NCBI GenBank assembly: GCA_036172245.1
Contig: JAYWIR010000008.1
Span: 4,960,001 to 5,024,000, forward strand
Reading direction: 5' to 3'
Source of the DNA: Raillietiella orientalis
Lineage: Eukaryota
DNA: 64,000 nt
Part shown: positions 2,193-49,310 of the stretch, one piece after another
Layout: each line of letters begins with the position of its first letter
Position numbering within the stretch: position 1 is the first letter of the stretch
Notes under the pieces: model-generated
What the model was told of the DNA's origin: nothing
Database searches by the model: none
What the model saw: the letters and a program-made list of their open reading frames with translations, nothing else
Program-made: the position numbers and the translations under genes

Positions 2193-2899
2193 GATGCATG
2201 AAGGTTTCTCTCTTTTTACGATGCACCTTTGACCGCCATCTTGCACACAGAAGCTCCTTCTGATTTCCAGGAAAGAGGCCTTGAGGTCTTGAAATCTCTG
2301 AAAGAAACGAAGAGGGAAGCAACCAGTTGTTCGCATCCCGTGACCCAGAAGAAAGTAAAAATCCTCATCCTGAGATCAGATTGCATCGATCTCATATCGT
2401 TCCCGGTGTTGCTAATGACCAATTTCTCGTGTGACACGTGGTACTCAAAAAGCTTTTTTTGAGGGAAGGAGGGAGAGGGATATTCTTCCTCTATCTTCAA
2501 AGCGTATCTTTGCTATCATAAGTGGTGTAGCTGCATAAGCTTAGCAGCGTAATGAAGAAGGAAAACCAAATGACCGATTGTAGGACACCCAACACATCGC
2601 TTTTTTTCTTTTTTTTTTGGTTTTCCCGTCCCTTTCGTCCGTGGAGAGTACCAAACCGGCCAGCGGGTCGGTAAGGACAAGTGAAAAAACACTGCCAGAA
2701 CCATGGGTTCTGGAAGAAGCAATGCCCAAAAGGCTAAATTTAAATATAACAGATAATATAGAATTTTAAAAATAAAAACCCCGGTTTATCCGGGTGAAAA
2801 ACTCACCGCTTATGGCGAAGGCTTTCTGAGCAGACCCCATGATGTTATCAAACACATATCTACGCAAACAAGGTGGCTCCTGCGTGGAACCTGGGTTGC

Positions 2900-4620: not shown

Positions 4621-4659
4621 ATTTAGAGTCTTCTGTTCTGGAAGCTTCTCCAAAGTGGT

Positions 4660-5569
4660 TCGCAAAGTCCTCAAGAACCGTTCGCCCAGGGGCTCACGAA
4701 GCTGTCCACACCACCAGAGGGTGCATGTTACTCTACAAGTTAGAAGACTCCTCATGAATCCAGGAAGACTCCAGAGAAAGGAGCGCGCTCGCTCGCCCTG
4801 GTTGTCTCCGAAGAAAACCCCGAAGGGAGCCTCTTCCTTATTATCTCCTTTTTTTTTTCTTTCTTAAAAAATAGGTGGAAGGGGACCTCTGTGCGAAGAG
4901 GCCGTGTGGGCACAAATCACACGTAGGTTGGGGCTTAAACAGGCACCGTCACGAAAAAAAAAAAAATACATCAACTGCAGGGGAATGAGGCTGAGTTGAG
5001 GATGATCTCCGTCCAGCAGAGGCAATTGAGGACTTCGCGGCACGTGCAGTTGAGGCCCCAGCCCTTGGCAAAGGGGACGCGCACCGAGTTGTAATTGCGA
5101 GGTCCATCCAAGTCGCGGGTCTGGAGCGTAGGCGACGGCTAGAGCCCGGAGCAATTCGTTAACAACCTTATTCTCTCCGGAAGGACCCCCCGAAGGGGGA
5201 GATGAACCGCTCATTTCTTCTCCGGAGGGAACACGCAAGGGTACCGCTCCTTGCATTCTATTCTGAAGAGAACCCGAAGGAATGTTTCCCAATTTCTCTG
5301 AAGCGTCTCTTTTCGAAGGAAGCCCAGAATGGTCAGCGCGCTTCTTGCATACTGGAGAGGCAACCCTGCGAAAGGGTTATCAACCAGCTCCATGGTACGC
5401 GATGGAGGGTCGTCCTTCGAAGGGAAAGGGGCTCTTTTTCACAACCGGAGAAATTCCCTAAGGAAACCGGCTCCTCGACTCCTGGAAGGACCCTGTAGGG
5501 TCGACTTCCAATCCCGACCGGTCAACGGGGCCATCAGAGGGGTTCCGGACGACGCACCCGACGCCGCAC
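4660..5569 (-). mobile_element. Body of the tRNA-headed SINE-like element (subrepeat region), interrupted at about 4870-5150
   Basis: Homologous to 23560-24180 (reverse complement) and 27020-27540; shares ATGAATCCAGGAAG, CTGGAGAGGCAACC and CAACCAGCTCCATGGT. Ends at the target-like CCCGACGCCGCAC (5557-5569). Confidence 0.75.
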
Positions 5570-6150
5570 GGATGTGTTTGTCGTTCTCTCCACGGATGCT
5601 GTATCGACTTCTTTTTCTTAAGTGGTCTACGTGGATTCAGTGATGGCGAAGGCACTACCGAATCTACCCTTCGTTGGTGGCGCTGTCTCCGGAGGGAGTG
5701 CTGTCTCCGGTGTCAGGCATCGCCGTCTTCGCTGCGATGCTGACACCGCCACCAACGAAGGCTGGGGGGAGATGCCCGCATCTCACCCTGAGACTATGGA
5801 GGTGGAGGGCGTCCGCCCCCACAGAATCGTCCCTTGCACCAGCGCGGGCTTGGAACGCCGTGTCCGCGGACCCGCCGCCGTCAGCCATGGCTGAACAGAA
5901 GGAGGGCTACAACCCAGTCCTCTTCTGCATGGTAGGTCACTTGTACGGTCCGGAGAGCACGGCCGCCTTCTCGAAGGCAATGTACGCTCACGACATCCTA
6001 CAAGAGGAGCTGTGCACGATAACCGTCCGGAGCGGGTGTCAGTAAATTGAGGTGGTCTGCAAGCAGGCAGACCTTGCCCAACGATTGCTGAGAATCCCCG
6101 TTGCGATGGGAATCAAGGGGTTCCTCCCGACCACGGTGGACCGCTCGGTG
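5570..6150 (+). mobile_element. Probable LINE 5' UTR and ORF1 N-terminus (RRM-like), pseudogenised
   Basis: Pro-rich leader, then MAEQKEGYNPVLFCMV..EELCTITVRSGCQ*IEVVCKQADLAQRLLRIPV, resembling a Tx1/L1 ORF1 RRM; internal stop. Confidence 0.4.
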
Positions 6151-6154
6151 GTTT

Positions 6155-7060
6155 AACACCGGGGTGTACCGGGGCGTTTAGTTTCAAGATAAACAAACAT
6201 GTGTAGGGCCATCGTCCCTACAACGTCCGAAAGAGTTCGGAATTTGCCGAGTAACCAGCACGCAGGCCGGCAAGCTTCGCCTCGGCAGCGGATGGGAAGG
6301 GGACAAACAGACATAAAAATAAAAACAAAAACACTATTTACAAAAAAATGGGAGGGTTAGGGAAGGGATCACATTCCGCTGGAAGTCGTCCTCTGCATCC
6401 TTTCCAGGATGCCGGCAAGTTCCATCCGAGTATGCCCCAGAAGGGGCCATCTGGCTGCCGTCCTCAGAAAGCGCAGGGCGAAGCAGATGGCGTCTCTATC
6501 GTGCCGTCCATCTCTGGAGTAGCTCCAGGCCGCTAAATCCTGCGTAGGAAGCACAAAGCTTCTATGGATGCAGCAGGCGCACGAGGAGGCTCATCGTCAC
6601 GTCCCTGGGATTGTGCGTTGGTGCACGTTGAGTAGAGCAACCACAGGAGCTGGAGGGCAAGACAGTCCACTAACAGGTGGGGCAGGGATTCATGTTCCCC
6701 GCACCTGCTGCAGTTCGGGTCCACAGCTCCCCTCGTCCAGTGAGACCAGCGGGCGTTGCACGGGAGACCCCAGTGCAGCACCAACAGCAGCGCCTCCTGC
6801 CACTTCATGAGGACTCGGTTGCCCTTCAGCGCTGTGGACCTCTCGAGGTCTTCCGGCGGGATTCCCAGCGGCTCGCCCAGAGCAATAGTCCTCTCGGTGG
6901 GGCACTTCGGGTAGCGGCGTTTGTCAGCTGACCCGTGGTCCTACCAAACTCCTTCGGTGTTCCACCGACCTCGCAATGAACCTTCCATTTTTGTCGCAGC
7001 AAAGCGTTCCCATAGGGACCGGATGGCAAGACAATCCAACGCTGGACTTGCATCCTTCCC
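6155..7060 (-). mobile_element. LINE family A 3' portion with CCHC knuckle
   Basis: KWQEALLLVLHWGLPCNAR..DPNCSRCGEHESLPHLLVDCLALQLLW (zf-RVT-like), the family A C-terminus and the 3' UTR module. Confidence 0.88.
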
Positions 7061-7079
7061 TGAACTCCGTTGCTGCCAC

Positions 7080-7360
7080 ATCTGCCACTGCTGATTGAAT
7101 CTGCAATTCGCGGGCGGCCAATCTGACGAAGAAGAACACGGGATGGATCTCCTGCCGCCCCGTGAACGGTAGTACCTGGTTAGAGGAAATCGTTCGCATA
7201 TGGGCCCAGAACATGGAAGCTAGCCCAGAGTTGCGGCAGCGATTGCTGTGCTCCTTTTGCAACAACCGCTCGCTGCAGGACGTCATCGTGCAGCCCGCCA
7301 CGCGTGCGTGGAATGAAAGAACCATGGCACTACCTTTCCTCAGGGATCACCTGGGCAGCA
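7080..7360 (+). mobile_element. LINE ORF2 post-RT fragment, inverted relative to its neighbours
   Basis: GWISCRPVNGSTWL..ALPFLRDHLGSS matches GWISCRSANGSAWL..ALPSLREHMGSS at 11255-11470 on the same strand. Confidence 0.7.
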
Positions 7361-7364
7361 GCCA

Positions 7365-7640
7365 GCAACCCGTGGCTCCCGGGAGGTTCAGCCAGTGGAG
7401 GAGACGCCACGCATGCGAGAGGGGACTCCTGTCTCCTTCCAACTCGATCCGGTAATGATCTGACAGCGTCGACGGCACCTTGCCGCGCCTGTCCACACGG
7501 GAGCACAGGTGCTGATCGAGGATGACATGGTGGATGCTGGTCTCCATACCTGGTTCCCCGATCAACAAGTTGCGCGTGTACATCGCCACGCATACCTCGT
7601 TGACCAGGTCTCGTTCAGTGTCCGGCGCACCTGGCACCAG
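7365..7640 (-). mobile_element. LINE APE endonuclease C-terminal fragment
   Basis: TSIHHVILD..VPSTLSDHYRIEL (SDH motif) then PLSHAWRL..WLNLPGAT, homologous to 10060-10130 (+). Confidence 0.6.
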
Positions 7641-7699
7641 GCGTACATGAAAGTTTCTTACCCGGTCACGCTGGGACGTTTATTCTCATAAACCAGCTG

Positions 7700-8520
7700 G
7701 AAACGGTTGTTTCCAGCCGGCGACTACAAAAAAACAGCGGAAATACACCACTGGCACGCAGGCCAAGAAAACGGAAGGTCCGGAATAGGTGGGGAAGGAG
7801 AGGACTACAAACAAAAAGAACAGTCTAAACGGGAGGAAGGGCCAGGGATCTTAGGTGACGCTCCGCAGTCATCAGAATAGACCAAGAATGAAAGCACTAA
7901 AAGCACTACGGAGGGAATGGGAAGTGGGGCGCGAAAACAAAAATGAAATTGAATGGGAATGGAGGTGGATCACCGGGATCGTCGTTCCAAACCATAGGTA
8001 ATCCGGCCATGGATGTCAGTGAGCTCCTCCGTTGCGTTTTCGGTCAAGTGTCGCCACCCAGCAGCCGCACTGATGAAGTCGGCTGCCTTCCTGGTGACAC
8101 AGCATCGCTGACCAGTGTTCTCCAGCACGTCTCGGACCGTGACGATGGCGCGTATGCAACCAACTGTGGAAATCATCGCAGCCGTCGAAAGTCCTTGCGG
8201 TTGGAAGAACCGTCGCAGCACACTTCTCGAGCGGTGTGTCCCGGTGACAGGAGTGCTACTGCCAACCTCCGCCTGAGTTCCTGGAGGGCACCGCAGTCCA
8301 AAACAAGGTGCGGGAACGACTCCGTCGCCCGCACCGGGCACAGTAGGGAGGAGCCACCCCACCGGAAACTCGGTGCCGCCCCTCATTGTGGCGCAGACCC
8401 GAAGAGCAAAACGTCCTGCTTCCAGGCAAGGGGAAACACCGAACCGTCCAAACAGCATGGAGGGACTATCAGTTCCTGGGGGGCAACACCAAGAGCTTCT
8501 TCCAGTGGGCGATGGCTGAG
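7700..8520 (-). mobile_element. LINE family B ORF2 C-terminus and 3' UTR
   Basis: FPLAWKQDVLLF, YCARCGR..SFPHLVLDCGALQEL and STVGCIRAI; homologous to 9410-9920 (+). Confidence 0.8.
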
Positions 8521-10030
8521 GCGAAGGGGAGAGCCGCGATGAGGTGGACTTCGCCAAAGCCACCGACGAGCTAGCCCCGTGGTACGGCAGCCCCTCAAGG
8601 CCTCCAAGAAGGCCGTCAGTAGTCCTGTCTCCGGGAAAGGGACCGAGATCTCGGACTCCGACCTGGAGGCCGGACGGGCACCATCCGCGTCTGCACCTCC
8701 GCGGAAGTCCGGACGGAAGTCCCGGAATCCAAGGACGATCGTCTCTTCCGAGACAGGGGAGTCCTCCGAAAACGAGCGTAGGAGCGTAGGACTCGCGTCC
8801 TGGCATTCTCCCAGGCACGGGCGCGACGGATCCGATGGAGGCGGAAGCGGTCGCCACGGTGCCCCCAGCCGCAGGGTCCCCAAGCAGCATCCCGCGCGAG
8901 CAGGAGGCGGGAGCCGAAGCATGAGTTTCCCAGCAGTAATGCCACCTGCCGTTAACTACGCGTTGCCGGGTTGGAACGTCAACGGACTGCGCGATGACGG
9001 CAGCAGACGAGACATAGCTGCCACCCTGCAGCCCCTCGACCTCGTGCTCCTGCAGGAGATCCATCAGATCTCCGCAGAACACGCTCAGGAGATCGAGAAG
9101 ATAGAGGGTGGTCAGCTGCTCTGGCGTTCAGGCTCTCACCGTTCGTGCGGGGTAGCTTAGCTGCTCAAGTCTGCCGTGCAAGCGCGGTGCGGAACGTACG
9201 TTTCGACGAGGCAGATCGGGTCGGGCAAATCACCCTCAGGTGGTCCGACTCGATCAACCTCGTTGTTACGAACCTGTACGCGCCGAGCGGTGGTCACTTG
9301 CGCACAGCACGGACGGCATTCTTCCGTGCCCTCAAGCGCGACTGGCTGGCGGAGGTAGGCGCGCGCAAGACGCACCTGACTGCCGGTGGTTTAAATATTG
9401 TGTGCACAGCTCGTTGTTCCCCCTCGCCTGGAAGCAGGCTGTACTGCTCTTCATTCACAGGGGATTTCAGTTTAACGAGCGACGGCATCGAGTTTCCGGA
9501 GGGGTTGTATCTTCGAAATGTGCCAGGTGTGGATCGACGAAGTCCCGCACCTGTTTTTGGACTGCGGCGCCCTCTAAGAACTGTGGCAAACGCTGGAAAC
9601 TGCACTCCTGCACCAGGAGGACACCGTCCAAGACGTGCTGTGGCGCTCTTCGCTCCGAGAGGACTCTCGACGGGCGCGGTTATTGCAACCGTGGGTTGCA
9701 TCCGTGCCATCCTTGGTGCCCGACTAGTGCTGCAAATCGCCATGCAGCCAAGGGAGGTCATCAGGATGGCAGCCACCTATCCGTTCCGTGACTTCACTGT
9801 CCACTAAGGTTATTTCTACATCAGGGCGGCTGCAGGGTGGCCTCGGCTGGAAGAGGAAGCCAAGGGGAGATCACCGGCATTCACCTCCGGTTAATGAACG
9901 GCTTGGAACGGCGTACCCGGTGTTCCTTGTTCCCTCCCTCCCTCTATATTAATTTTTTCCCCTAATCCTCCGTTCCCATTCTCTCCGTTACTGCATTGGT
10001 GCTTTTTTTTTTTCATCCTAGTAAATATGG
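8520..10030 (+). mobile_element. Internally deleted L1/Tx1-like element: ORF1 tail, APE endonuclease N-half, then directly the ORF2 C-terminus
   Basis: Ser/Arg-rich ORF1 tail and EN motifs, immediately followed by HSSLFPLAWKQAVLLFIHRG..KCARCGS..VPHLFLDCGAL; no RT between them. Confidence 0.8.
8921..9400 (+). pseudogene. APE-like endonuclease domain of LINE ORF2 (frameshift/stop at about 9157)
   Basis: GWNVNGLR, DLVLLQEIH, CGVA, VVTNLYAP and AGGLN (~GDFN) in canonical order. Confidence 0.9.
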
Positions 10031-10264
10031 AGTGCACCAAAGATCACTGTCAGGACCCCACAACAGGGGTCCCCTCTCGGATGCGTGGAGTCTCCCAGGG
10101 GACTGGCTGAACGTCCCGGGAGCCACGGAACACCTCCGCACGTTCTTACGGGATTTCAGATTGCAGACCCTCGATTCCCACCCGGGTGCGCCGAGGCGTT
10201 TATTCTTTCAAATAAGCATTTACAGAATCCATGGATGGACCACTGGTCCAGCCGCGCGCTAGAT

Positions 10265-10760
10265 GTTCAAAGCCTGCCGGGTCAGCGGTTCGCAGATCGG
10301 TGCGGTCCACCTAGGCAACAGGGGGGAGGAGACAAAAGCAAAAAGAAAAACAAAAATCAAAATAAATAAAAAAAATTGGGAGGGCGCGGGAAGGGATCAC
10401 AGTCTGCAGGGCGGGTGTGTCAGATCCTCTGGAGGATGCCGGCAAGCTCTTCCTGAATATTGGATTCCAGGTGGGACCAGCGCATTGCCATCCTCAGGAA
10501 GCGGACGGCGTATTCGCTGGCATCGCAATCACTGTCCCCCCGTCGCGTTGCTCCTCCATGCAGCGACCATCCCGCGTAGGCAGCACAGGGCTGCTAGCTA
10601 GGCCGCTGGTGGGAGGACGTCGCGAACGAAGAGGGATCTGAGAGCGTCTCTGGAGTGCCTCAGGGGATACCTTGGGTCGCAACAAAGCGTTCCCATAGGG
10701 ACTGGATGGCAAGACGATCCAGTAACAGGTGGGGAAGAGATGCCCGTTCCCCACACCTGA
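10265..10760 (-). mobile_element. LINE family A 3' fragment
   Basis: WIVLPSSPYGNALLR shared with 6990-7050; family A C-terminus, TGATCCCTTCCC, T tract and 3' UTR module. Confidence 0.75.
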
Positions 10761-10839
10761 CACAGTTGGGGCTCACACTCCTTCGTGTCCTCCCTCAGCC
10801 TCCTGAAGGCAGCTGGACCACGCCTCCGAAGGGAGATAA

Positions 10840-12376
10840 TCCCCCAACGGTACACCGAGGTACTTAAAGTATCGCACCGGGGGATACCCTTCGCCCCTTG
10901 CTTTTTGTTTGCCCACCGCTATACAGCATTAGGAAGAGGACAAAGAACCTCCTCCGGATCGCCCTCTGGGGCAAAGGGAGTCCCCGAGTCCGCCTAAAGG
11001 AATTGTGTGTTCCGCTCCGGGACGGCAGCCCAAGGTTCCTCCTGACACTGGAGCGAATGGAGCTGCAGACCCAGTTTCGAACACTCACCCTCGTGGCAAA
11101 GCTCTGGAGCACCACCTGGTGCCAACTTGCACGCCTTCTAGTCCAGCAAGCCACCGGCAGAGTGGAACTCGCGTCTTTTCTTGAGTACCGTCCACGCAGT
11201 CTCATCCATGGAAGGCTGCACCTGAGGCAGGTGATCACGCTGGCGAGGAAAAGCGGATGGATCTCGTGCCGGTCCGCGAACGGTAGTGCCTGGTTGCAGG
11301 TGGGCGAGGATCCAGGAGTCAAGCGCGGAACAGGGGCGACGTTTCCTGTAGGCGCGTAACAACAGCTGCACGCTCCGGGAGATCCTGGAATATCCCGCGG
11401 AGAGTGCATGGGGAAACAGAACCCCCCTCGCCGCTGCGTTGCCCTCCCTTAGGGAGCATATGGGCAGCAGCCTTACAGCTAGATGGGAGGTTACTGTAGA
11501 AATCTCTGGAAGGAGAAGAGGACTGGGAGAGTGGACGACGGGCCAGCTCACCGTCGCTGCGATCCCGAGTGCTCGTCCTCGTGGACTTTTGCGCTGGAGC
11601 ATGCTACTGGGAATTCCGGCGGAAGTCTTGCAGTGGACCCCGGTGCTCATGAACACCCGCACCCTCCCTTCAAAGTGGCAGTAGTCGGCATTGATGCTGC
11701 TTCATTGGAGCCTCTCGTGCAACGCCCGTCGGCACCTGCAGACACGGGTGTATGTGAACCCAAAGTGTGCAAGGTGAGGGGGCGGGAGTCCTTCCCGCAC
11801 CTCCTGGTAGACTGTGTTGCCCTCCGGCCCCTTTGGGGACACTCGGTCACGGTCCTTGGAACCCCCGGAGGCAACGCCAGAAACGTTTGAAAGCGCATCT
11901 TCCTGCGCGACGCCCTCTCGCCGGCTGCATCCCTAGCAGCACTCTGCTACCCACGTGGCGGGACCGTGGCGGCTGCATGGAGCAGCAACGCCAGAGGAGG
12001 CCAGGACGACAGGGACCTCATCTATTCTTCTGTCCTCTTCATGAGGACAGTGCCAAGATGGCCCCATCTGGGAGTCTTAAAACAGAAACTTGCCGGCCTC
12101 CTTACAAGGATGCAGCGGGAAACCTCCGACACACAGTGATCCCTTCCCGAAACCCCCCACCCCTCCCTTCATCTTTTTTGACAGCAGTTTTTTTGGTTTA
12201 TTTTCCTCTTTCTGTTTGTCTCCCTTTCCCCTGTGCTGCCGAGGCGAACCCTGCTGACCTGGGTGCCAGATCCCGGCAGGTTCCTTCTTGTAGTTATGAG
12301 TAACGTGGTGGGATCAAACGTCCTGCCACAGACGTTTATTTTTTATAGATAAAGGTCCAGGAGTGACCGGGTGTCA
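10840..12376 (+). mobile_element. 5'-truncated LINE family A (post-RT to 3' end)
   Basis: LWGKGSPRVRLKELCVPLRDG, LPSKWQ, PKC..RESFPHLLVDCVALRPLW and the 3' UTR ending GTGACCGGGTGTCA. Confidence 0.88.
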
Positions 12377-12560
12377 ACCAGTACCCCCACTCGAATAGAC
12401 CAACCAGTGTCATCCTGCGGGAGGGGGACTCGAAACCCACGATGCACCGCCCATTCTCTGGCGTCTGTCCTTCCCCGGGTGGAATTAAGAAACCACGCGT
12501 GGAAGCTGCAGCCACACGCCCGCGTTGGTGGTCTCCAAACCGACAGCAAAATGCTGTCCT
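12377..12560 (-). mobile_element. tRNA-related head of the SINE-like element (right flank of the LINE insertion)
   Basis: Reverse complement of about 25390-25515 (CCAGTGTCATCCTGCGGG..GGGGACTCGAA..); degenerate B boxes. Confidence 0.75.
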
Positions 12561-13835: not shown

Positions 13836-14175
13836 TTTTTTTTTTTTTTCTAAAAAAAAGGTCAGTAGCGACCCCACGGGGAGATCGTAACCATTGACCT
13901 AAAATTGATGGACTTCCCTTGGAGTTCTTCTGCTCTCCCTGCTTTCCTTCCAGCTTTTTTCTTTTTTTTCGGTTCTCGAGGGGTGCTGGAGAACCGATGG
14001 TCACCTTGCGGGGAGCTCGCGAAGCTCTTTAGCACCGTCCGCGCCATTCGAAGGTGAGTGTAGTAACTCTTCAAATTAGGGGACAACCCCGGAAGGACCA
14101 CCCTATGAATCCAGGAAGGGCTCCGGAGGAAGGAGTCCGTTCACACTTGGCAGCGGACTCCGAAGGGAACTTTGA
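13836..14175 (-). mobile_element. 3' part of the SINE-like element with terminal hairpin and poly(A)
   Basis: 14010-14170 is homologous to 24000-24150 and 27030-27180; ends in a hairpin, T8 and about A14. Confidence 0.7.
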
Positions 14176-15049
14176 CTTTGAACATGACTTTTCTGTCATC
14201 ATGGCATTCGGGATACAACAGAGGACTGGCATGCACAATCTGGTAGGTTTTTAGTTGCAGTGATGCGCGGCTGCGGAGTAATTTGAATGTTCAGGGCGTA
14301 TCCCTCAAGAAATCTCTTCACAACGGATGCGGGGAGCGGAACGCGATTTCTCTTCAAGATTCTCCGCAGACGTCTCCGGAACGGCCGCAGCGCTGATGAG
14401 ATTCCTCACACAAAGCACGCGTGAGGGAGGCTTTCGGTCGTGATAGAATCCGGCGAATGATCTCAAAGGAACCTCTCGGAGTCATCTGAGGAGCGAAGAT
14501 ATGCGACGAGGCCGGCTCAAAGCTTCGCTTTGTGGCTTTTGCCTCGGCAAGCCTCTCTGTTCCGCTTCCCCCCATTTTTCCGCCTGACCCCGAGCATCCT
14601 TGCGATTGCAAAGCCCCATTTCGAGAGAACATGGCAGGAGGACGGGAGGGGCCAGGGGCAGGTTGCAGTACGGGGCGCGGAAGTGGGAGCGATCTGCACA
14701 GCACGAAGTCACGCAACCGTCAGCAGCGAGGGGAGGGCTCTCTCCTCCTCGCACCGGACGGGAACGTCAGCGCTGTCGCCATTTCTCTGGGAGCTCGCAA
14801 CAGACCCTCGGCTCCCGCGAGCAGCTTCGGGTTTTCAATTAAACGGGAGCAGGGTGGCGCGGGACAACTTTGTAAAAGATCCCAGGCATCCGGTTAAATT
14901 TCGCCGTTCAGCTCGCTCGCTCGGGGAAGCTGTCAGCAGCATCCTCGGGAAACACTTTACAACGCAAAGTTATTCATTCTTTCTTCTTCTTAACACCAGT
15001 TGTGCATCCTGTCTTTTTTTTTTTTTCTTGTTTCTTCTTTGGCTGTCCT

Positions 15050-16200: not shown

Positions 16201-18360
16201 AGTGTTTTCGTAGGAGGGGAAGCCAAAGAGCTCTTTGGCTTCCCCTCCTAGGAAAACATGAGTGCTGAATTTCGTGCGTACACTGCGCAGCACGTTGCAC
16301 CTCACAGAAAAACGGGTGGCAACAGTGAAGGGGAAGAACTGCAAGAACTGTTCTTCCTGTAGAAAAGAATCCACTGGCTTCTCAGCCTTTCGCTTTCTGC
16401 TTCTGGAACCCAGTTTTCTCCGGGATGGTCTGATCGAGAATCAGCACCCCACTCTGGGAACGTGTCCCGCTTCCCGTACCGGAATTCCTTTTACGGGACG
16501 GTTATGCCGATCGGATGTAACCATGGGAACACCTTACGGATCTCTGGTTCCTGTAAACAGCACCTGCTGTTCCGTGCGAGGACCGCGATGATTTTCTTGT
16601 CCTTTCCTCTGTCTCACGGGTTGCATCCTCACAGGAGATGACGCGGAGGAGGTGACTGCCGGTTTGGGAAATTGAACCTGGAAAACTCGAAACTGGAAAT
16701 TTCTTTCGAAACTCTTTCACCGATTCTTCGCATCCCGCGCAGCTGCCTCCCTCAGCCTTTCGGGACTCCTCTCCAGTCTCGTCTCGTCTCCAGAATCCCA
16801 CATGAATTTTCAGATCAACTGTTCGTGTCATGTTTACTGGTTGCTCTTACGATGCAAATCAAGGGTCGCTCTCGGAGTCATCCTCGGAACTCCCTCGGAA
16901 GTCACTTTGCATTCGAGCCGTGTCGTGCTGCTGAGCTGTAACCAGCTCCCATCGAGGTCCATCGAGCCAGCTCCCTGCCCGTCCGTATCCCGCACATTCC
17001 CATATATTTCTCCCTGAAATCCTCCTTCTCCCCAAAGCGCGGCCTCTCTCTCCGGCTTCTTCTTCTGATCCCTTAAATGGGGGGTGTGCGAGCCACGAAT
17101 TTGTCTTTTCCTTCGCGTTCGTCGTGGGATTTCGGCTCCGCGTTTATCGGCGCCGTAAGCGGAGCCGCGGTTCTTCCGCGGCGAGGAAGTTCCTGCAGCC
17201 GCGGTGGCTTCCTCGCGTCGCGGCTCGAACACATGAATTTTTCATCGCGCATACCTGCCCACGCCTTTCCCTTCCCATTCGGATCCTCACGTATGAAAGT
17301 GGATACCCGTACTTTGATCAGCATCTTGCCGAATCCCGCAGCACTTGTCGGGAGTGACTTCTTTCCTTGATACATTCCACGAGAGGGGCGTTCCCCATTT
17401 TTTAATGTTTCATCTCGCCTTTTTTTTTTCTTTCTCTCGTTTAAAAATACTTGGGACCGTTTCATTCCAAGAAGCCATCCTGAATCTTCCTCGGGACAAG
17501 AAGGTGCATAAAGACAAAGTGATTGATTCATTCCAGCGGAAGACGCAGATTTCCTTAGACTGCAATCCACTCGCAGGTATTATTAGCCATCCACTGTGGC
17601 TCTTCGGAGATGAAGCTCTTCCCTCCGAGTCGTAGCTGTGCTTCGGGAAAACCGTGACAAAAACTAATTACTTTCCTTCCTCATTAGGACATCCGTATTC
17701 GAAATCAGCGCAATGAGCACCACAGTTCTTTGGAACGAAGCGGTTCCTGACCGGTGAGACCGGAAAATTCCTGAGAGCCAGGAACGAGGAAAGGGAACGC
17801 GCGCGGATCCTTCCAGGATAGCAATCCCAGCTTGCCCAGTCGCGCCCTGCCGCCCCAGGTTGCCATGATAACGATAGGGGCTTGCTACCGGGGAGAGAGG
17901 GAGGATGCTGCCCGGACGCCCTGTGTCTCGACTCTTTCGCGCACTCCCGCACGTGTATCCATACAGACGTGCGTACATGAGTGCTCGTGTTGAAGTCTGC
18001 AGGTCCACAGGAGCACTCCAGGAGGGTGATTCCTACTTCGCTGTCACAATTCTCTGAGGGAGGGACCAATCTGGCTGCTTAAGTCATCGCTGAGAAACGA
18101 TCGTTAAGATGAACTTTTCATGGACCCTTCGGGTAGTCGTGAGGCTGAGCTGATGGCTATACGCATGAAGCGAGCCACTCTACCAACAGGAGAACTGGAA
18201 AAGACACGCGAAGAGAGCGATCGGTCGCTGCGCAAGAGGAGACACTCCAAGCTCCCAGGAGGCAACGGAAACAACGCCCACGCTTGCTCCTCCTCCATCA
18301 GGCGGAACGGGCTTCCACCCATGTGTGGATTGAAATCACCACTGTCTCACAGCGGGAACG

Positions 18361-18956
18361 TTCCTTGGACCCTCTTCACGCTGCGGTATGGCGGCATTCT
18401 TCCTTTCGGGGGACTGCCCAGAGCACCAGCAAGATGACGGGCTGTTGGTACCGAAGAAGAAGAACGGAGGCGTCGACCACGCTACCTCGAAGTTCCAGCG
18501 AGCGAATCCACAGAGACGCCACTCCGACCACTGCGACCGCGAGGTCTTCGTGTGAACAGAAGGGATCAGCGGCGGCACAACCGCAAGAGGTTCGAAGGAA
18601 CGGAAGAAGCTCTTGCAGCGTGGAGGCTCCGCGAGGGGGACACGGGTGCTGGGCAGCCGCCGGTATCGCGGGAGCGGCAGTCGCTCCCGGAACCGCCAAA
18701 CGGACAAAACACGTGTTCCGGCAGGCGACGCGAGCGATTCGCCCGCCTGCTCCTTTCCCAGCGAACGGAGTCGGCTTCCGCCAACGCGCAGGAGGCAAAT
18801 CACCGCGCGATTCGGAAGCAGAGACGACCACCTCCCTCCTCGGGGAAAGAAATTCGAACGAGAAGCTGCGCGCAGATTCCGGTGACCCCGGATGCCATTT
18901 GAAGCGAGCAGCGATGCGTCCCCGCGCACAATGAGGACCGGAGCGGCGGAAACCAG
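18361..18956. repeat. Direct repeat copy 2 (partner 228-823)
   Basis: Near-identical from about 18443 to 18956; more diverged over 18361-18440. Confidence 0.97.
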
Positions 18957-19032
18957 CAACTCTCCAAGGAATAAAGAAAAGTTGGCGAAACCTGCGTGGG
19001 AAGGAACTCCTGAATTGGACTTTGCAAACGAT

Positions 19033-19863
19033 GACTTTCCAGGTACACAGCGGCAACGCGAACACCGCGAACCACTGAAACACCAACAGCCCTTCTCCTT
19101 CCGGTCTCGCTACCTTCCGCCGCAGAGCCAGGGTGAAGTGGACCCATGTTGAGCAGATCGCCCTCAACCGGGTGGGTTGCGGCGGGGTCTCTGCGAAGGA
19201 TGGAGCGCTCGGTTTCAAAGTACCCGGTGGTCATCCGCCTCGGGAGTGTGTCCCCAGTCCACCCGCGGGGAGGGGCGGGGGAGGCAACAAGGCGTCTTTC
19301 CACCGCGCTGTGCACCGTGGAAGTACCACCGAGTTCCGGTGGTTACTCTGCGCGAGGAAACGCAGACCGCTCTCGGGTCCGAGCGGGGTTTCCGATGCAC
19401 GCGACGGCTGGGAGAGAACAGCACTTGGCGGGGTGGACAGTTGAGGAGAGAGTCAACTGCTCCCCACAAGGATGTCTGTAATGCCATATGAAAGGAGGCT
19501 CCCGAGGCGGGTGGTCCATCCCACCACCGAGTCCGGGAGGAGGAAAGGACGAACTTCCTCTCGCATGCAAAGCACCCACATGAAAACCAAAGCTCCACAC
19601 CCGGTCGGGGGACGAAGAAGCCCAAGGGGGCACTCGTTTTCGAAGCGGTGACTCCGCACTGGATAAAGAGTAGTCGAATGTTTTTCTTCATCCAGCAGCT
19701 GCAGCACCTTCCCTACGACAGCGCAGTCGGGGAAAGCAGCGATAGAGGACACGCCGAAGAGCCGTCACCTCGTTGCGGAACTGCAGTGCAATCGACGGCG
19801 GCGCCAGAAGACGCCCGCATCCTCAGGTGCCATGCAACAGCGGCAACGGAGAACTCCGTGTTT
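19033..19863. repeat. Inverted repeat, left arm (831 bp)
   Basis: Reverse complement of 21686-22516; paired coordinates sum to 41549 throughout; mirrored ORFs are identical. Confidence 0.98.
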
Positions 19864-21685: not shown

Positions 21686-22516
21686 AAACACGGAGTTCTT
21701 CGTTGCCACTGTTGCATGGCACCTGAGGATGCGGGCGTCTTCTGGCGCCGCCGTCGAGTGCACTGCAGTTCCGCAACGAGGTGACGGCTCTTCGGCGTGT
21801 CCTCTATCGCTGCCTTCCCCGACTGCGCTGTCGTAAGGAAGGTGCTGCAGCTGCTGGATGAAGAAAAACATTCGACTACTCTTTATCCAGTGCAGAGTCA
21901 CCGCTTCGAAAACGAGTGCCCCCTTGGGCTTCTTCGCCCCCCGACCGGGTGTGGAGCTTTGGTTTCCATGTGGGTGCTTTGAATGCGAGAGGAAGTTCGT
22001 CCTTTCCTCCTCCCGGACTCGGTGGTGGGATGGACCACCCGCCTCGGGAGCCTCCTTTCATATGGCATTACAGACATCCTTGTGGGGAGCAGTTGACTCT
22101 CTCCTCAACTGTCCACCCCGCCAAGTGCTGTTCTCTCCCAGCCGTCGCGTGCATCGGAAACCCCGCTCGGACCCGAGAGCGGTCTGCGTTTCCTCGCGCA
22201 GAGTAACCACCGGAACTCGGTGGTACTTCCACGGTGCACAGCGCGGTGGAAAGACGCCTTGTTGCCTCCCCCGCCCCTCCCCGCGGGTGGACTGGGGACA
22301 CACTCCCGAGGCGGATGACCACCGGGTACTTTGAAACCGAGCGCTCCATCCTTCGCAGAGACCCCGCCGCAACCCACCCGGTTGAGGGCGATCTGCTCAA
22401 CATGGGTCCACTTCACCCTGGCTCTGCGGCGGAAGGTAGCGAGACCGGAAGGAGAAGGGCTGTTGGTGTTTCAGTGGTTCGCGGTGTTCGCGTTGCCGCT
22501 GTGTACCTGGAAAGTC
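21686..22516. repeat. Inverted repeat, right arm (831 bp)
   Basis: See the left arm; lies between two minus-strand hAT relics. Confidence 0.98.
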
Positions 22517-23559: not shown

Positions 23560-24180
23560 AAGCATTGGTGGGAGGCAGATGCCTCCGTTGACTGTCCGAG
23601 GTCCTTTCAGGAATCCAGGTGCCTGTTCCTTTCGGGGTTGTTCCTCTCCAGTTGTGAAAATGAAGCCGTCCATATCCTAGGGGAGGGACCCTTCATCTCG
23701 TACCATGGACCTGGTTGATACCCGCCACGGGAGGTCGCCTTCCAGTGTGTAAGGAGCGCGCTGCTCCCTCCGGGGAGCGCCCTTAAGGAAAATTTGGAAG
23801 CATCCTTTGGGGGTTCTCTTCAGAGGAGGAGGAAATATGAAGCGAATCCTTTCCAGGGGTCCTTCCGGAGAAGAAATTCCAGGAGCGGATCCTTTCCGGG
23901 TTCCTTTCAGAGAAGAAATGAGGAGTTTCTCCCCCTTCCGAGGAGTCCTTTTTTGGAGAGAATAAGGAAGAGGTTCCCTTCGGGGCTCCCTACCAAGAGT
24001 GAGAGGAACAGACTCCTTCCTGTAAAGCCTTCCTGAATTCATAGGGTTGTCCTTTAGGGGTTACCTCCTAACTAGAAGAGTCACACGCACCTTCGGGTGG
24101 CGTGGACACCGTCAAAGAGCTTCGTGAGCCGCCAGGAGGACGGCTCTTCGGTACTCAGCGAACTAAAAAAAAAAAGAAAG
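23560..24180 (+). mobile_element. Body and A-tail of the SINE-like element
   Basis: About 40-bp diverged tandem units (..CCTTTCCRGGKTCCTTCCGGAGAAGAAA..); GTCACACGCACC..GTCAAAGAGCTTCGTGAGCCGCCAGG shared with 27020-27085; A run at about 24164-24179. Confidence 0.8.
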
Positions 24181-25190: not shown

Positions 25191-25289
25191 AGATGGAGAA
25201 CTGTCTCCTATGCACCTCCCAGGGCACAGTCTGGAGGCTGACTTTGCCGTCAGTGGTCGAAACGGTACATAATGAGGCGGTATATCTTC

Positions 25290-25612
25290 GACCATCGCTG
25301 GTGGCTGCGCCGTCAACTCTGCGCCAAAGGGACACGATTCCTTGATCAGCCACGCTGGGGTCGGGGTTCGAGCCCGCAACGCTTGGCGCCGCGGGTTCGA
25401 ACCCCACACGGGGAAGGACCGACTCCAGAGAAATGGGGAGGTGCGTTGTGGATTTCGAGTCCCCTCCACCCGCAGGATGACACTGGGTGGTTGGCTTATT
25501 TAGGTGCGGTACTGGGGGAAGCCGGATGACCCCCTTGACTGGACGGAATATCAAGGAGCCGGTTTCCTTCGGGGTTCCTCTCCGGTTGTGCAAATGGAGC
25601 CGTCCTCCCCTT
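25290..25612 (+). mobile_element. tRNA-headed SINE-like element, 5' part, with empty LINE target
   Basis: B-box-like GGTTCGAGCCC (25365), GGTTCGAACCC (25394) and GATTTCGAGTCC (25451); target GGTGCGGTACTGG at 25503-25515. Confidence 0.75.
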
Positions 25613-25997
25613 CCGAAGGGCCGACCTGAAGGGAGCAGCGCGCTTCTTACACTCTGGAGAGGCAACCGCCTTGGGATGACTCGCTTCGGGGTTCCTCCAA
25701 CGGAACCCCGAAGGGAACCGGCTCCTTGATACCTGGAAGGACCCCAGGGGATCTACTTCCAATCCCGGCCAGTCAATGGGAACATGCGGGGGTTTCCGGC
25801 TTTCACCAGTGCCGCACTCGGAGCCTACAGCTTAACCAGCATCACCCTGCAAAACCTACGACGCATCCCCCGTTTCTCTGGAGTCGATCCTACCCCAGAC
25901 GGGATTCGAACCTGCACCACTTGGCGCCGCGCGCGGATGCCGCAGCCACGCGGAGGCCAGAGCGCACGTGTGGCTGCGGTCACCAGTAGAATTGGCC
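25613..25997 (-). mobile_element. tRNA-headed SINE-like element, opposite orientation, with empty LINE target
   Basis: Canonical B box GGTTCGAATCC on the minus strand (25902-25912); target ACCAGTGCCGCACT at 25805-25818. Confidence 0.75.
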
Positions 25998-27019
25998 TAT
26001 GGTCACGTCCAGGAAGAGTTCGTGTCCCATCTTTAAAATCTCCTCCTCTCATTCCCCTCGCAGCTGCCAAGGATTCCAGCTTCCCGCTCGGCGCCTTTTC
26101 TTTGTTTCCTGAGCCAATGAGGCAGAGAGGCTCAGGGTGAACGGCCGGTGCGCGTCTCGGCGTTCCTGGCGTTCCGTCGGTGGGAGCTCTTCAAGTTTGT
26201 CCCCTCTCAAGTTGCTGTTCGCCTGCGTCACGGGAGCCGCGCGAGGCGCCGAGGCCACGGTCGGTGCTCAACGAACGCAGGATGAAACGGGAAGATTCCG
26301 CGGAATCGACGGTTCCTCGAGCGACGAATCCCGTGGGCGGCTGGCGCGACGAGAGCAACCAGCTCTCCCGCGTGCGCGCGTAGCTGCGGCAAGAGCCTTG
26401 ACGTCGACCAAGACATGAGAGTCGGGTCCATCCGTTCTCAGGCGCGAGCCGAGCTCTTGCAACCGACGGACCCTCCCGCAAGATTCCCCGCGGAATTCGC
26501 TTCTTCGTGGGCGTCGATACTCCAAACTCAGTCTCTGAAAGCCTCTGACGGATGACTCAGGGAGCAGGGAGCGGTCGCGTTTGATGGCGCCGTCTTTGTT
26601 TTTTGTTTTTTTTTCCCATCCGGCTGTTCCCATTTCCTTCCTTCGTGCTCTCGGGAGGAGTGCGACGCACAGAGGAGGAAAACAAATCCTCGCTCTCCGA
26701 CTGTCACGAGGAAAGCGTTCGGGTCACCTGGACTCTTTCTCACAGGTCTGCTGGCCTCTACAGGCGACCGGCCGCCCCTTCCCGTGGATTTCGATCCCCG
26801 CTGCGTGAGGAACGCGCAAGTGACACGGCACCGTTGCTAGCCAGCGAGGCCCGTGTCAGAGGAGTCCGCCTCCATCTAGTCTCCTGAAAGTCTTTCCTTA
26901 AAGCAGCCCCGAGGTTCACTTAGCTGTCTGCTCACCTTCAGTCGCAGGTGAACGTAATGTACCAGGGCGAAGCACCTGAGAAAACACCTTCCCGGGCTTC
27001 ACCAACCACTCCCGAACCG

Positions 27020-28275
27020 TCCGCCTGGCGGCTCACGAAGCTCTTTGACGCTATCCACGCCGCCATCCTAGGGTGCGTGTGACTCCAAGTTAGGGGGGGC
27101 GTCGCCAGAGGGACCGCCTTTCGAATCCAGGAAGGTTCCGGAGCAAGGGGTCCGTTCCTCTCACGCTTAGGAGGGAACCCTGAAGGGAGCCACCTCTTCC
27201 TTATCCTCTCCGGAAGGACCCCCATAGGAAGGGAGGAACTCGTCGTTTCTTCTCCGGAGGAATCCCCTGGCAAGCATCCGCTCCCTGTTTCCTCCTCCTC
27301 CGAAGGGAACTTCGAAGGGACGCTTTCCCATTTCTGTAGAGGGCCTCCTCGAAGGAAGCAGCGTGCTTCTTCACATTCTGGAGAGGCAACCCCCCGAGGG
27401 GCATCAACCAGCTCCATGGTATGCGATGGGGGATAGGGGTGGCTCCTTGGTCCCTGGAAGGACCCCAGGAGAATCAACTTCCAATCCTGGCCACTCAACG
27501 GAGGCATCCAGGGGTTCGCGGCTTCCACCAGTGCCGCACCGACCCCTTTGGGGACGCTTGGCCAGGACCCTTGGAACCCCCGGAGGCAACGCCAGACATG
27601 TTTGAAAGCGCCTCTTCCTGGGCAACGCCCTCTCACCGGTCGCATCCTCAGCAGCACTTTGGTGCCCACGCGGCGGGACCGTGGCGGCTGCATGGAGCAG
27701 CAACGCCAGAGGAGGCCAGGACGACAGGGACGCCATCTATTTTGCTGTCCTCTTCATGAGGACAGCGTCAAGATAGCCCCATCTGGGGACCATAAAACAG
27801 GGCATCCTTACAGGGATGCAGAGGACACCCTCCAGCACACAGTGATCCCTTCTTGAACTCCCCTCCCCCATTTTTTGGCCTCATGTTTTGTTTTGTTTTT
27901 TTCTTTTTTCGTTTGCCTCCCTTCTGTGTGGCCAAGGCGAACCCGTCTGTTCTGCTTGCCGGTTCCCGGCAGGTTCCTTTTCGTATTCATAAGTAATGTG
28001 ACGGAATCAAATGCCCTGCCACAGGCATGTAGGTATAGAAAGAAACACCCCGGCGTGACCGGGTGTCAACCAGTGCCGCACCCGAAGCCAACCGAGGCCA
28101 ACCAGAGGCATCCTGCGGGGGGGGAGGGGGTGACTCGAACCCAAGGTTCACAGCCCATTCTCGACGTCGCCCCTTTCCCGGATGGAATTCGAACCTGCGA
28201 AGTTTGGTGCCGCGCGCGGAGGCCGCAGACACGCGGCTGTCAAGCCGGACTTCGCCCATGAGCTACCAGTAAGTA
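27020..28275 (-). mobile_element. Near full-length tRNA-headed SINE-like element split by a LINE insertion
   Basis: A-box-like TGGTAGCTCATGG (about 28257-28269), B boxes at 28184-28195 and 28131-28142, body 27020-27540; removing 27541-28082 restores the empty-site sequence. Confidence 0.8.
27541..28068 (+). mobile_element. 5'-truncated LINE family A insertion with 14-bp TSD
   Basis: Homologous to 11825-12376; flanked by ACCAGTGCCGCACC at 27527-27540 and 28069-28082. Confidence 0.9.
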
Positions 28276-29999
28276 GGGCCTTCTCTGCTTTAGAATGTCG
28301 CTCTTAGGATGGGTTGAAGGCGCAGCATCAACCATCATCTTCGAGGCTGAAAACCTCATTGCTCTTTGCGCGAGCATTGGAATCCTGAAACAGCACCAAT
28401 CAGACTTACAAGGAGGAATGCAACGGATAATCCAGAGACTCCGACATGTACCATTCGGTCACGTGATTGAGAGATCACGTGGGCGCGAAACAACCGAGCT
28501 CGCGTTCTTTGCCCCTCCCCCCCGATGATCGGAATCCCCACTGCTGTCCTCGAGGAAATTCACCATCAGCCGATCCATGGGGACGACGAACTGAACATGA
28601 AAGAGAAACGGAGCAGCTACGGTGATGGTTGCTGCATTCTTCGCTGCTTCTTCCACCGGAACGGGCTTGCCGGCAAACTGGTGTGGTGGGCATCCCCTCC
28701 ACAGAAGCGAAGGCCCCCTCTCCCCATGTCTTTTCGGCAAGCATAACAGCTGGTGGGGACGGAAAGGAGCAGCACTTGGCTTGGAAGATGCCGAGCGTTC
28801 GAGAGGAAAGGGGGAGGGAGGGGGGGGGGGCAGCCGCCGTGAAGAGGCAAACACGGGCGGTCGTGCGCGCAACGGCGGCAACACGCGGACGACGGAGCGA
28901 ACGCGAGAAACGCCCGCACGCGCGATATGGCGGATGTCGCGAACCTCGAGGCTTTCCCGCGCGGACTTTGCCAGAGAAAACGTGGCGTGAAAGCGTCCAT
29001 GCTCTTCCCGATCGCCAAAGAGCAGCAGAAGGCTATCCGACTTTCCCTTTGTAACGCAAGCCCATTTCCTTTGATGCCCGCAGTATTCACTCCGCCCTCC
29101 CTCCTTTCGGTGATTGAATACGTTTAGAAAGGAAGAAAGAAACGGTATCGAGGAGCGTTGCAAAGTTTCCTCTTTCTGGAAAGGAGTCACGGTCGCGTCT
29201 CTGGACCGAATGATGGAAACGGTGATCGAACACGGTCGCACGCATACACAGCAGGCACGCCGCGACGGCCCGTTGCGCGGGTTGCTATGGAGGCGGAATT
29301 CCCGCGCAACAATGCTGATAGCCTAAAACGGAACGCTCCCCAGCCTCAGTCTTCGTGTTTCCATGAGCACGCGGTTTGGGGTGCTGCAAACAGCTCGGTG
29401 GCTCTGGAAACGCCTTCTCTCCCTTCCGTCCTATTCCAAGCACCGCGCCAGAATTTCACCCCGTGCGCAGGCATGATGGATAGAGCTGTTCCCGAGTTCC
29501 AATGGAAGAATTTCCCTGCTGAACAAAAGTGGCTGCATTTAATTTGTAGACCTCAGGTTGAACTCGGGTTTTCGGAAGAATGATCAATCTCCTCAAGATT
29601 TGGTTTGCTAGGAAACGGAACGATAGCGGGGCAGGGCGCGATCCGTTCACACGTCGTACCCCCCCCCCCCTTCTGCTCTCCCCCTACCGCGTTCCGTTTC
29701 TTTCCAAAGTGAATTTTTGCTTGCACTTCCGATAAGCAAATACACGGATGAAGAAGAATTTTCCGGCTGCGCATCCTGCTGGGCACGGATCCGGGTTTGC
29801 TGTTCCTCCTGCGTTCTCTTACCAGAGAGGAGCAGTAGAGAGTCCGAGATGCGTTTCCGCGTCGGCTTCTACTCGTGCAGGCACATCTGTCGCCGGAGCG
29901 AAAACGATGTGCGAAAATATGGCACCATTATTATTCTGCCATCCTGACGTATTTTTCGTTACTCCAGGTGTATCGCTACTGAAAATTCAGCTTCCATAT

Positions 30000-34589: not shown

Positions 34590-35260
34590 CACACCCTCAG
34601 TCTCAAGTGATGGGAGTCGGCTCTTTTGCTGTTGTACTGGGGCCTCCCATGCAACGCAGCTGCCGGCATCGCGGACTCAGGGGGGAGGGAGAGAAGTGAG
34701 CTCCGAGCTGCAGCAGGTTCGGAGAGCGAGGACCCTGTCCGCACCTGCTTGAGGACTGTGCTGCTCTTCGGCCCTTTCGGCCCCCTGCGGATGCAACTCC
34801 GGAGACTCCTCTTCCTGCGCGATGCCCCCCCAGAGGCTCTCTGCTGCCTCCGTGGGACTGTGGCTGCCTGGAGCGCCGCGAGAGAGGCGAGAACGACAGG
34901 GATCCACTTTTTGGTGCGTTTCATGAGGGTGGCATCGAGGTGGCTCCATCTGGGAAGCACGCAACCCGAACTTGCCTCTGATGGGTGCAGATGATGCCCC
35001 AGAGCTGACACCGGCCCCTTCCCCAAGCTCCCCGAATTTTCTTCTATTTCTTTAATTTTGATTTTTTTCTTATTTCACTTTTTATTTTGTTTGCTCCTCC
35101 CCAAACTCTGCTGCCGAGGAGACCCCCGCCGGTCTGCGTTCCGGCATCTCGGCAGGTTCTTCAACCAGTGGCCGTGGCAGGAGCTGCAGTCCTACCACAC
35201 TCACTGCCTTTTCATGTTTATCGTTTGCAACAAACGTCCCTGGGACAATCGGTTGAGAAG
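34590..35260 (+). mobile_element. LINE family A 3' end
   Basis: LLYWGLPCNA, PHLLEDC, ALCCLRGTVAAWSAAREAR..VASRWLHL, T tract and 3' UTR module (35111-35159). Confidence 0.8.
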
Positions 35261-47989: not shown

Positions 47990-49310
47990 GGTCTCAGCAT
48001 CTTTCTGCATCCACCGACCGTTTCTGGACATTGACCGGGGCTGCAGAGTCCGTGGGTTCCAGCTAACCCTTTGAAATGCATCCGAAGCTGTCGATAATCG
48101 GAAGACCCCTTGGACCTCTTGCGATGGAACCGAGCCTCCCAAACAAGAAATGAAAATTTCCTCCTAGCTGCTGAAGAAAAAACCCTTGAGATGGCTTCCC
48201 TGAACTGGAATGGACGCTTCTGAAGAGCGGCATCGGGCAACCCGTCAGAAAACGCCATTACCAGCCAGGAAGGCTGTGACTGACTACGCGCATGCCGACA
48301 GGTCAAAGGGATGTCTCGCGGCCCACCTAATTCATCTGAAGAAGCCGGCAGCTTTGTGATAAATGGTCACCTGAAACTTTGAACTTCTCCGGCCGTGCAA
48401 GAATCATCGCGGAACACTTTACGACCGGCGACGAAAGAGATCAGAGGCGTCGCCAGCGGATGGAGATTTAGGGAATCTCGTGTCAGCTGCAACCGAAGGA
48501 AGATGAAGCAGACCAAGTAGAGACCCAGGAGTGTCCGCTCGCGGTAAGAAGGCAAGCAGAACCAGAACGGCTGAGGCAAAGTGGGCGTTCGAAAAAACTG
48601 CCGGATTCGGAGAAACCACTCTCGATGCACACGGCAAAAAGAAAATCTCCCCCTCCCTATTCTGTGCATGATTCAGCGCAGCGCATTCCTCGCCACCAAA
48701 TGTTGAGATCAAGGACGGACCACGTCCTGGTTCTTTGTTTGCTTTTTTTAAAATCCTCGAAAAGGCTTCCCCGAAGGAAGGAACGAACTGGAGCGGAAGC
48801 CCCAGAGGGGGAGGTCCACTCCAAGACTCCATGAAGGATCCCCGAAGGGGAGGTCCACTTCATGACACAAACTGGAGGGATTCCTGCAAGTACCCCGGAG
48901 AGTCTACTTCCTCTTCCGGCCAGTCGACGGGGCCATCCGGTCCCCAGCGCACACAAGCGTCCCTCCAGCGCCACACCCGAAGCCTGCGAGACAACCAGCT
49001 TTCTGCGGGGGGAATCGCAACCCACGATGCATCCATCGCAGACGTCGATCCTTTGCGGGGTAGGCGAATTCGGTGACGCGAAGCTTGGCTGGTGCCGCGC
49101 ACGCGCAAGTCGCAGCCGCAAGTCCTGAGCTGGGCGGCATCCCGTATCAGCTCACCATTCGTACAGTGGTGGACACTACCAGTGGACCTGCACTTCGTGG
49201 ATCCATCCACGCAGCACGAACTCACCTTCCCCCACCTGTGCGGAAGGGGGCACAAAGGACGTCAGCACGCGTCTATCCAGGATTGCTGAAAGACGGGACG
49301 AGCTCCTTGT
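47990..49310 (-). mobile_element. LINE ORF2 C-terminal relic, interrupted by a SINE-like insertion
   Basis: SRLSAILD, RDAAQLR|TWSVLDL (split by the insertion), DHLSQSC and FLVWEAR. Confidence 0.55.
48730..49121 (-). mobile_element. Short copy of the tRNA-headed SINE-like element with TSD and A-rich tail
   Basis: Flanked by GTCCTG (48724-48729, 49122-49127); minus-strand tail AAAAAAAGCAAACAAAGAAC; empty target CCAGCGCCACACC at 48965-48977. Confidence 0.75.

Follow-up and report, generated by a model that had tools for sequence, protein, structure and literature searches.

The region analysed is a 64 kb stretch of DNA (the window in what follows, taken at its full length), which is repeat-rich and has a G+C content of 45-65%. 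Its central feature is a filled insertion site, in which a LINE fragment (copy A) lies within a second repeat, the host. From left to right, the site is composed as follows.

26995 to 27526, minus strand (host sense), body of host copy A, defined by nhmmer and alignment
27527 to 27540, plus strand, 5' copy of the 14-bp target-site duplication ACCAGTGCCGCACC, host sequence, read directly and collinear with uninterrupted host copies
27541 to 28068, plus strand, LINE copy A, a 528-bp 5'-truncated tail found by tail-profile match and ending in ...GTGACCGGGTGTCA
28069 to 28082, plus strand, 3' copy of the 14-bp target-site duplication, read directly
28083 to 28262, minus strand, head of host copy A, containing a pair of B-box-like motifs and a single weak A-box-like one

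A preliminary description of this DNA had placed a 528-bp LINE 3' fragment between perfect 14-bp copies, and both copies were indeed read at 27527-27540 and 28069-28082, so that the anatomy of copy A is a matter of direct reading. The fragment starts just behind the CCHC motif of ORF2 and covers positions 97-624 of the tail profile (profile match 27538-28069, E = 5e-145). Its duplication, identical at 14/14 bases, is the sole perfect one of at least 12 bp among nine LINE tails, and the host around it is collinear with three uninterrupted host copies. Considering the 14-bp duplication, the 5' truncation, the conserved 3' tail and the CCHC/zf-RVT frame common to diverged copies, the sequence supports reading the insert as the 3' part of a LINE that was placed by target-primed reverse transcription.

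The base composition of the whole window differs from that of a methylated vertebrate genome: vertebrate genomes are CpG-depleted, and here the observed/expected ratio was 0.93 for CpG (no depletion) and 0.45 for TpA, a strong deficit. Many A/T homopolymer runs of 10-21 nt were seen across its whole length. ARAGORN found no tRNA gene in the window and Rfam gave no match at gathering score. Two further repeats were observed. The first is an inverted repeat with arms at 19033-19863 and 21686-22516 (831 nt, 99% complementary, 1822 nt spacer), which may be a young foldback, a terminal-inverted-repeat element or a recent inverted duplication. The second is a direct repeat of 611 nt with 97% identity, at 227-837 and 18360-18970, 18 kb apart, where several frames are open and have no Pfam match.

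The host was studied with a profile consisting of host copy A with the LINE removed, which was used to scan the window with nhmmer. With orientation given relative to copy A, matches were obtained at 25591-26035, 25377-25605 (minus), 48745-49119 and 12356-12532, and further at 4655-4848 together with 5163-5565, 23562-24153 (minus) and 14009-14177. Apart from the fragment beside the second LINE copy described below, the copies that inform on the site are the following.

25591 to 26035, minus strand, host copy B, site uninterrupted at 25805-25818, with 13/14 bases as in A (nhmmer, alignment)
25377 to 25605, plus strand, host copy C, inverted beside B, site uninterrupted at 25503-25515 (minus strand)
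48745 to 49119, minus strand, host copy S5, site uninterrupted at 48964-48977 (nhmmer, alignment)
4655 to 5569, minus strand, host copy S3, whose body stops at the distal edge of the duplication-homologous stretch
23562 to 24175, plus strand (sense), host copy S4, starting at the site or close to it (GCATTGGTGG) and terminated by A11

Altogether there are at least seven host copies or fragments, dispersed, 57-72% identical around the site and together filling several per cent of the window. Read on the strand antisense to the LINE, the order is head, site, body and poly(A); S4 ends in its A11 at 24165-24175, and another copy, S7, opens on the other strand with a T-rich run. In four of five heads a B-box-like motif was found with at most one mismatch to the 11-nt consensus, and it was exact in two of the five, while an A-box-like motif appeared in the heads only at two mismatches from its consensus. 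The host had been called tRNA-headed, but no tRNA was recognised in the head by ARAGORN, nor by Rfam at E <= 10 in 25250-28450. A tRNA origin of the head is plausible. Judged on two features, the B-box-like motifs and the poly(A) end, the host is to be read as a SINE-like retroposon, old and dispersed, with a poly(A) tail and a length of about 0.8 kb, which is long for a SINE. Its body (27000-27540, 4650-5570, 23560-24150) consists of small internal repeat units that are degenerate, ...CCGAAGGGAACC... and ...TTCTCTCCGGAAGGACCCC... among them.

The three empty sites that had been claimed, at 25805-25818, 25503-25515 (minus) and 48965-48977, all correspond to real uninterrupted host copies in the alignment, and they make up 3/5 of the host copies with sequence on both sides of the site. 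Such empty copies, one of them like A's target at 13/14 bases, are compatible with a preference for the site and lend it no support. Copies C and B form a tail-to-tail inverted pair that meets within the body at about 25591-25605, both with the site uninterrupted.

A second LINE copy of the same subfamily (copy D) was located in the left part of the window, again next to a host head.

at least 11472 to 12376, plus strand, LINE copy D, subfamily of A (profile match 11729-12377, E = 1e-181)
12377 to 12532, minus strand, host head beside copy D, its first base homologous to 28069 (profile match 12356-12532)

Copy D retains a decayed CCHC frame (ORF 11483-11887) and the whole 3' UTR, and its LINE sequence reaches to 11472 at least, as judged by nucleotide and protein homology to copies E and I (listed below). 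In the multiple alignment of the tails A and D stand out as a distinct pair, 81% identical. The terminal 14-mer GTGACCGGGTGTCA has exactly two matches in the window, at 12363-12376 and 28055-28068; when up to two mismatches were allowed there were three matches against 0.31 expected, a number reached in 0/100 shuffles. Beyond 12376 the host flank begins with ACCAGTACCCCCAC, homologous to the duplicated 14-mer. The claim of a longer, diverged copy with an identical end that runs into the same host site is thereby confirmed, both in the exact 14-mer and in the homologous flanking base, and the identity of the 3' junction is again read directly. In a self-comparison the alignment of 11824-12486 with 27539-28189 (78% over 679 nt) continued from the LINE tail through into the host flank. 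The orientation relative to the host is the same in A and D. At the 5' side of D the host-profile scan of the window detected no adjoining host body.

Another junction, at 5569, had been proposed as a third case. There is a real break of the host at the site, since S3 ends at the last base but one of the duplication-homologous stretch and is followed by unrelated sequence, but the "probable LINE 5' UTR/ORF1" that was said to follow it is unsupported: 5570-6148, including ORF 5644-6042, has no Pfam match, no protein-atlas match and no second copy in the window. The interval 5570-12376 may conceivably be one 6.8-kb element, a reading that we set aside; it contains at least five LINE fragments in both orientations, and the would-be halves of its duplication, at 5569 and 12376, agree at 9/14 bases (P = 0.06 if one event). 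At most two elements (A and D) can be resolved, not three independent junction events. The patchwork between 5570 and 12376 was seen to contain the LINE fragments E, J, K (9499-9956, plus strand), F and D in both orientations, an inverted pair at 8081-8454 and 9399-9774 with 69% identity, and a 46-nt patch at 6993-7038 that is 93% identical to 10676-10721. It may have arisen by nesting of LINE into LINE or by template switching.

The inverted repeat at 19033-19863 and 21686-22516 sits just past the second head-less copy, S4. The sequences that follow the breaks of S3 and S4 are dissimilar (score 19 against a shuffle mean of 20.9). That both copies lack a head may be due to LINE insertions that were rearranged afterwards, to a boundary between host modules or to a point where host transcripts tend to start. 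Given that S3 and S4 break at or near the site with no demonstrable LINE, the site may be fragile or be a module boundary for some other reason, which counts against reading it as a LINE target.

To place copies A and D within their family, a nucleotide profile was built from six tails, and it recovered nine tail copies in the window (A, D, E, F, G, H, I, J and M). The seven tails other than A and D, all found with the tail profile and all with flanks that are not host, are as follows.

6153 to 6749, minus strand, LINE tail E, distant subfamily
10175 to 10791, minus strand, LINE tail F, distant subfamily
62536 to 63159, minus strand, LINE tail G, distant subfamily
1593 to 2109, plus strand, LINE tail H, distant subfamily
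34673 to 35258, plus strand, LINE tail I, distant subfamily
7657 to 8348, minus strand, LINE tail J, very diverged
2602 to 2797, plus strand, LINE tail fragment M

These seven tails are 39-66% identical to A/D and to one another, and their flanks are also mutually unrelated. All nine tails (9/9) end in ...AAACGYCCYGG-loop-ACCGGGTGnnAA, with no poly(A). A 5-bp hairpin is predicted at this 3' end, whose five pairs are conserved with no compensatory changes, and for the latter reason we did not retain it as a structure.

In L1/Tx1-type LINEs a C-terminal CCHC zinc knuckle (zf-RVT) follows the RT. Upstream of the tails an open frame carries the motif C-x2-C-x7-H-x4-C, which is conserved in D, E, F and G and decayed in I, J and K. 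When matches were admitted up to E = 1, two of six CCHC segments matched Pfam zf-RVT (E = 1e-3, as in ORF 6536-6940 at tail E), below the gathering score, and in the protein atlas the best cluster for the best-preserved segment was zf-RVT, with a score of 0.97. The APE-type endonuclease domain (Exo_endo_phos), which in such LINEs stands at the N-terminus of ORF2, was matched by residues 144-186 of ORF 8543-9157 on the plus strand, at E = 2.4e-4 and 21.4 bits against a cut-off of 24.5; this ORF is part of a LINE copy other than A and D. Stretches resembling endonuclease motifs (SDH-like at 7440-7650, minus; NLYAP-like near 9250, plus) had no Pfam support and were set aside. In copies F (10790-10900, minus) and G (63160-63300, minus) there is a KYLG-like stretch only about 35 residues before the CCHC motif. 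The spacing between the two suggests an internal deletion shared by F and G, that is, a putative non-autonomous derivative.

The reverse transcriptase domain (RVT_1) was found neither in the 145 ORFs of at least 136 aa of the whole window, nor in 135 ORFs of at least 40 aa in 5400-12400, nor in 62 ORFs of 50-135 aa upstream of the tails, a scan that left out 333 ORFs of 70-135 aa elsewhere in the window. Since the copies present are tails or internally deleted, this does not exclude a LINE. Three ORFs and the CCHC profile compared with the PDB gave nothing relevant, and no homologues of the CCHC ORF or of the endonuclease-like ORF were found among longer proteins. The six-segment CCHC profile, compared with 1.84 billion representatives, gave two marginal matches (E = 6e-4 and 1e-3) with unrelated Pfam content. 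A metagenome scan with a 27-nt stretch of the LINE gave no match; with an 18-nt junction it gave three loci that had only 19-28 nt in common with the window, which we discarded as chance matches. Taking into account the CCHC/zf-RVT frame, the sub-threshold Exo_endo_phos match and the duplication and 5' truncation of copy A, an L1/Tx1-type LINE would be the only sensible reading of the insert family. Its endonuclease is probably of the APE type. To call the A/D LINE "Tx1-like" is a guess.

Whether A and D arose separately was judged from their alignments. At the 5' end one extends beyond the other by 377 bp or more. The identity between them is 440/524 (84%) in the LINE and 97/143 (68%) in the host flanks (Fisher p = 4e-5), a difference which implies that divergence of the host copies preceded the arrival of the younger LINE copies. 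The host copy nearest to D's flank is the empty copy C (71.5%), and that nearest to A's flank is the empty copy B (70%). These comparisons show A and D to be two independent insertions at the same base and in the same orientation of a second repeat. The preliminary description had named, as what would speak against its idea, a single 5' breakpoint and host haplotype shared by all filled copies; that is not the case for A and D, the two filled copies resolved in the window.

If insertion were uniform, the probability that at least two of nine tails fall on one of seven host sites in one orientation would be about 1e-7, and given that both tails lie in host, that of the same base and strand would be about 6e-4 (calculated with a host length of 870 bp; a length of about 800 bp changes little), both figures referring to a sample of two events in one 64-kb window that was chosen as striking. 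At the host site are 2/2 tails of the A/D subfamily against 0/7 of the others, in this one window. As seven of nine tails lie in unrelated sequence, specificity is at best a subfamily trait (2/2 for A/D, 2/9 for the family).

A rival reading is that there is no real specificity and that the endonuclease follows a short degenerate motif, which the host, being abundant, would offer often enough to become a hotspot. The share of the window taken up by host copies, the seven tails of the wider family in unrelated sequence and the junctions themselves speak for this: all nine flanks follow an A-rich tail end ...NNAA(T/C) and AACCA at the junction is common to E, A and D. However, the seven other tails belong to subfamilies far from A/D, at the low identities given above, and the same base and strand were hit in host copies that are only 68% alike, a coincidence of about 6e-4 even with both tails in host. 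We consider a simple hotspot unlikely.

The absence of a host body at the 5' side of D, whose 5' end lies within a jumble of LINE fragments, could also indicate that D's host flank came with the LINE, through 3' read-through of a source copy resident in a host site, and that both then inserted elsewhere, so that A and the unseen source alone would be true insertions at a host site. Against this, D's flank takes in the head up to roughly the point where alignment of the other host copies ends too, as a resident copy would. Moreover, being only 68% identical to A's flank, it would still derive from a second independent insertion at the host site, so that the bookkeeping would change and the conclusion would stay. 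Read-through of this kind seems improbable to us.

It is also conceivable that the Pol III machinery (TFIIIC/TFIIIB), assembled on the B-box-like motifs, guides integration instead of the sequence. In four of five heads a B-box-like motif stands 51-66 nt from the site, and the two events do not differ in their orientation towards the head. It had been stated that the LINE lies antisense to the host head about 40-60 nt past the distal B box at three junctions; for A and D the antisense orientation holds, and the TCGAA core of the distal B-like box is 66 nt (A) or 53 nt (D) away from the nick, while the third junction is at most a candidate. Nevertheless, the homologous base was hit despite this 13-nt difference in distance, which favours sequence recognition over distance measuring, weakly as n = 2. 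No tRNA-like gene was found by ARAGORN or Rfam, and the Pol III activity of the head is putative. Guidance by Pol III factors is given a small probability. That one ancestral insertion was multiplied afterwards, through segmental duplication or gene conversion, for which the shared junction and the alignment running through it could be invoked, is very improbable in view of the different 5' extents, A's own perfect duplication, the host flanks more diverged than the LINE (p = 4e-5) and the different empty copy nearest to each.

The reading that we prefer, and to which we give somewhat better than even chances, is that the young A/D subfamily of an old LINE family would strongly prefer one site in an older SINE-like retroposon, where it inserts antisense. 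Two cases in one window point to a target-specific LINE, but cannot prove it. The site is ...TTCC^ACCAGTGCCGCACC^CGAAG..., 50-65 nt from the distal B-box-like motif of the host. According to this preferred reading, the LINE endonuclease would recognise the local sequence and nick the bottom strand at the 14-mer's left edge; the nicked 3' end would then prime reverse transcription of the LINE RNA from the conserved terminal motif, a cut of the top strand 14 bp further on would generate the duplication, and 5' truncation with 2-nt microhomology would close the event. In this scheme we infer that it is the endonuclease which recognises the site, which strand is cut first, and whatever part host sequence read through onto the RNA may play.

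A wider version may be formulated, which we regard as speculative and rather unlikely to hold in full. A LINE lineage in a genome with no CpG depletion, possibly outside the animals to which the Tx1 clade is assigned by Kojima (2015), would have acquired single-base specificity for a promoter-proximal site of a SINE-like retroposon, in antisense, and so would parasitise a retroposon that is itself mobilised by another LINE. Its precision would perhaps come from pairing of read-through host RNA with the nicked target. The cleavage might in addition shape the host family, given that the same site marks the end of the head-less copies S3 and S4.

Among the systems already described, many LINEs of the Tx1 clade show target preferences according to Kojima 2015 (PMC4494074), a preference being defined there as at least 20% of flanks and the placement in Tx1 being made by RT phylogeny (RTClass1). 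Tx1L of Xenopus laevis inserts in the piggyBac-type Tx1D (PMC4494074, citing Christensen et al. 2000). In crocodilians, Tx1-Mar families insert around two positions of Mariner-N4_AMi, with a fixed orientation at each, and Tx1-9_AMi integrates into Harbinger elements some 300 bp behind their 5' end; Tx1-8_Crp and Tx1-4_AMi prefer LTR retrotransposons, Keno targets U2 snRNA genes, and Kibi and Koshi target microsatellites (all PMC4494074).

The preliminary description went too far in presenting the pairing as undescribed: Tx1 families already occupy preferred positions in piggyBac, Mariner, Harbinger and LTR elements (PMC4494074), so that a LINE with a mobile landing pad is of a described kind, known from animals. 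A LINE that targets a SINE was not found in the literature searched, which did not extend to Repbase and does not prove absence. If the preferred reading is true, a SINE-like pad would extend the known list of rDNA, snRNA and tRNA genes, microsatellites, DNA transposons and LTR elements, and would represent layered parasitism among retroelements. Target-specific LINEs are a natural form of programmable, safe-harbour integration, and each new pair of endonuclease and target is useful to compare. The present value of the locus is that of one probable example, with two events and no enzyme sequence, and it serves mainly as a pointer to a genome-wide survey.

Dictyostelium TRE and yeast Ty3 insert near Pol III promoter elements, where they are positioned by distance from the transcription complex. 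The A/D insertions are likewise close to candidate elements of this kind, the B-box-like motifs, but they fall on the homologous base despite the 13-nt difference in distance. Dewa and Mutsu are APE-type LINEs with sequence-specific targets in multicopy sequences. Keno, Kibi and Koshi resemble these two in both respects, as the present LINE putatively does, and differ from the present case in that the targets of all five are genes or simple repeats, whereas here the target is a dispersed retroposon.

The closest likenesses are with Tx1 elements. As with Tx1L in Tx1D, the LINE lands at one site inside a non-autonomous mobile element of which many copies are empty; the pad is a piggyBac-type DNA transposon there and a poly(A)-tailed SINE-like retroposon here. 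With the crocodilian Tx1 families the case has in common a preferred position and fixed orientation in another transposon, and a specificity that varies between related subfamilies. In contrast, tens of copies and an RT phylogeny sustain the crocodilian cases, and two copies with no RT sequence the present one, which furthermore lies in a window that, unlike vertebrate genomes, is not depleted in CpG (observed/expected 0.93).
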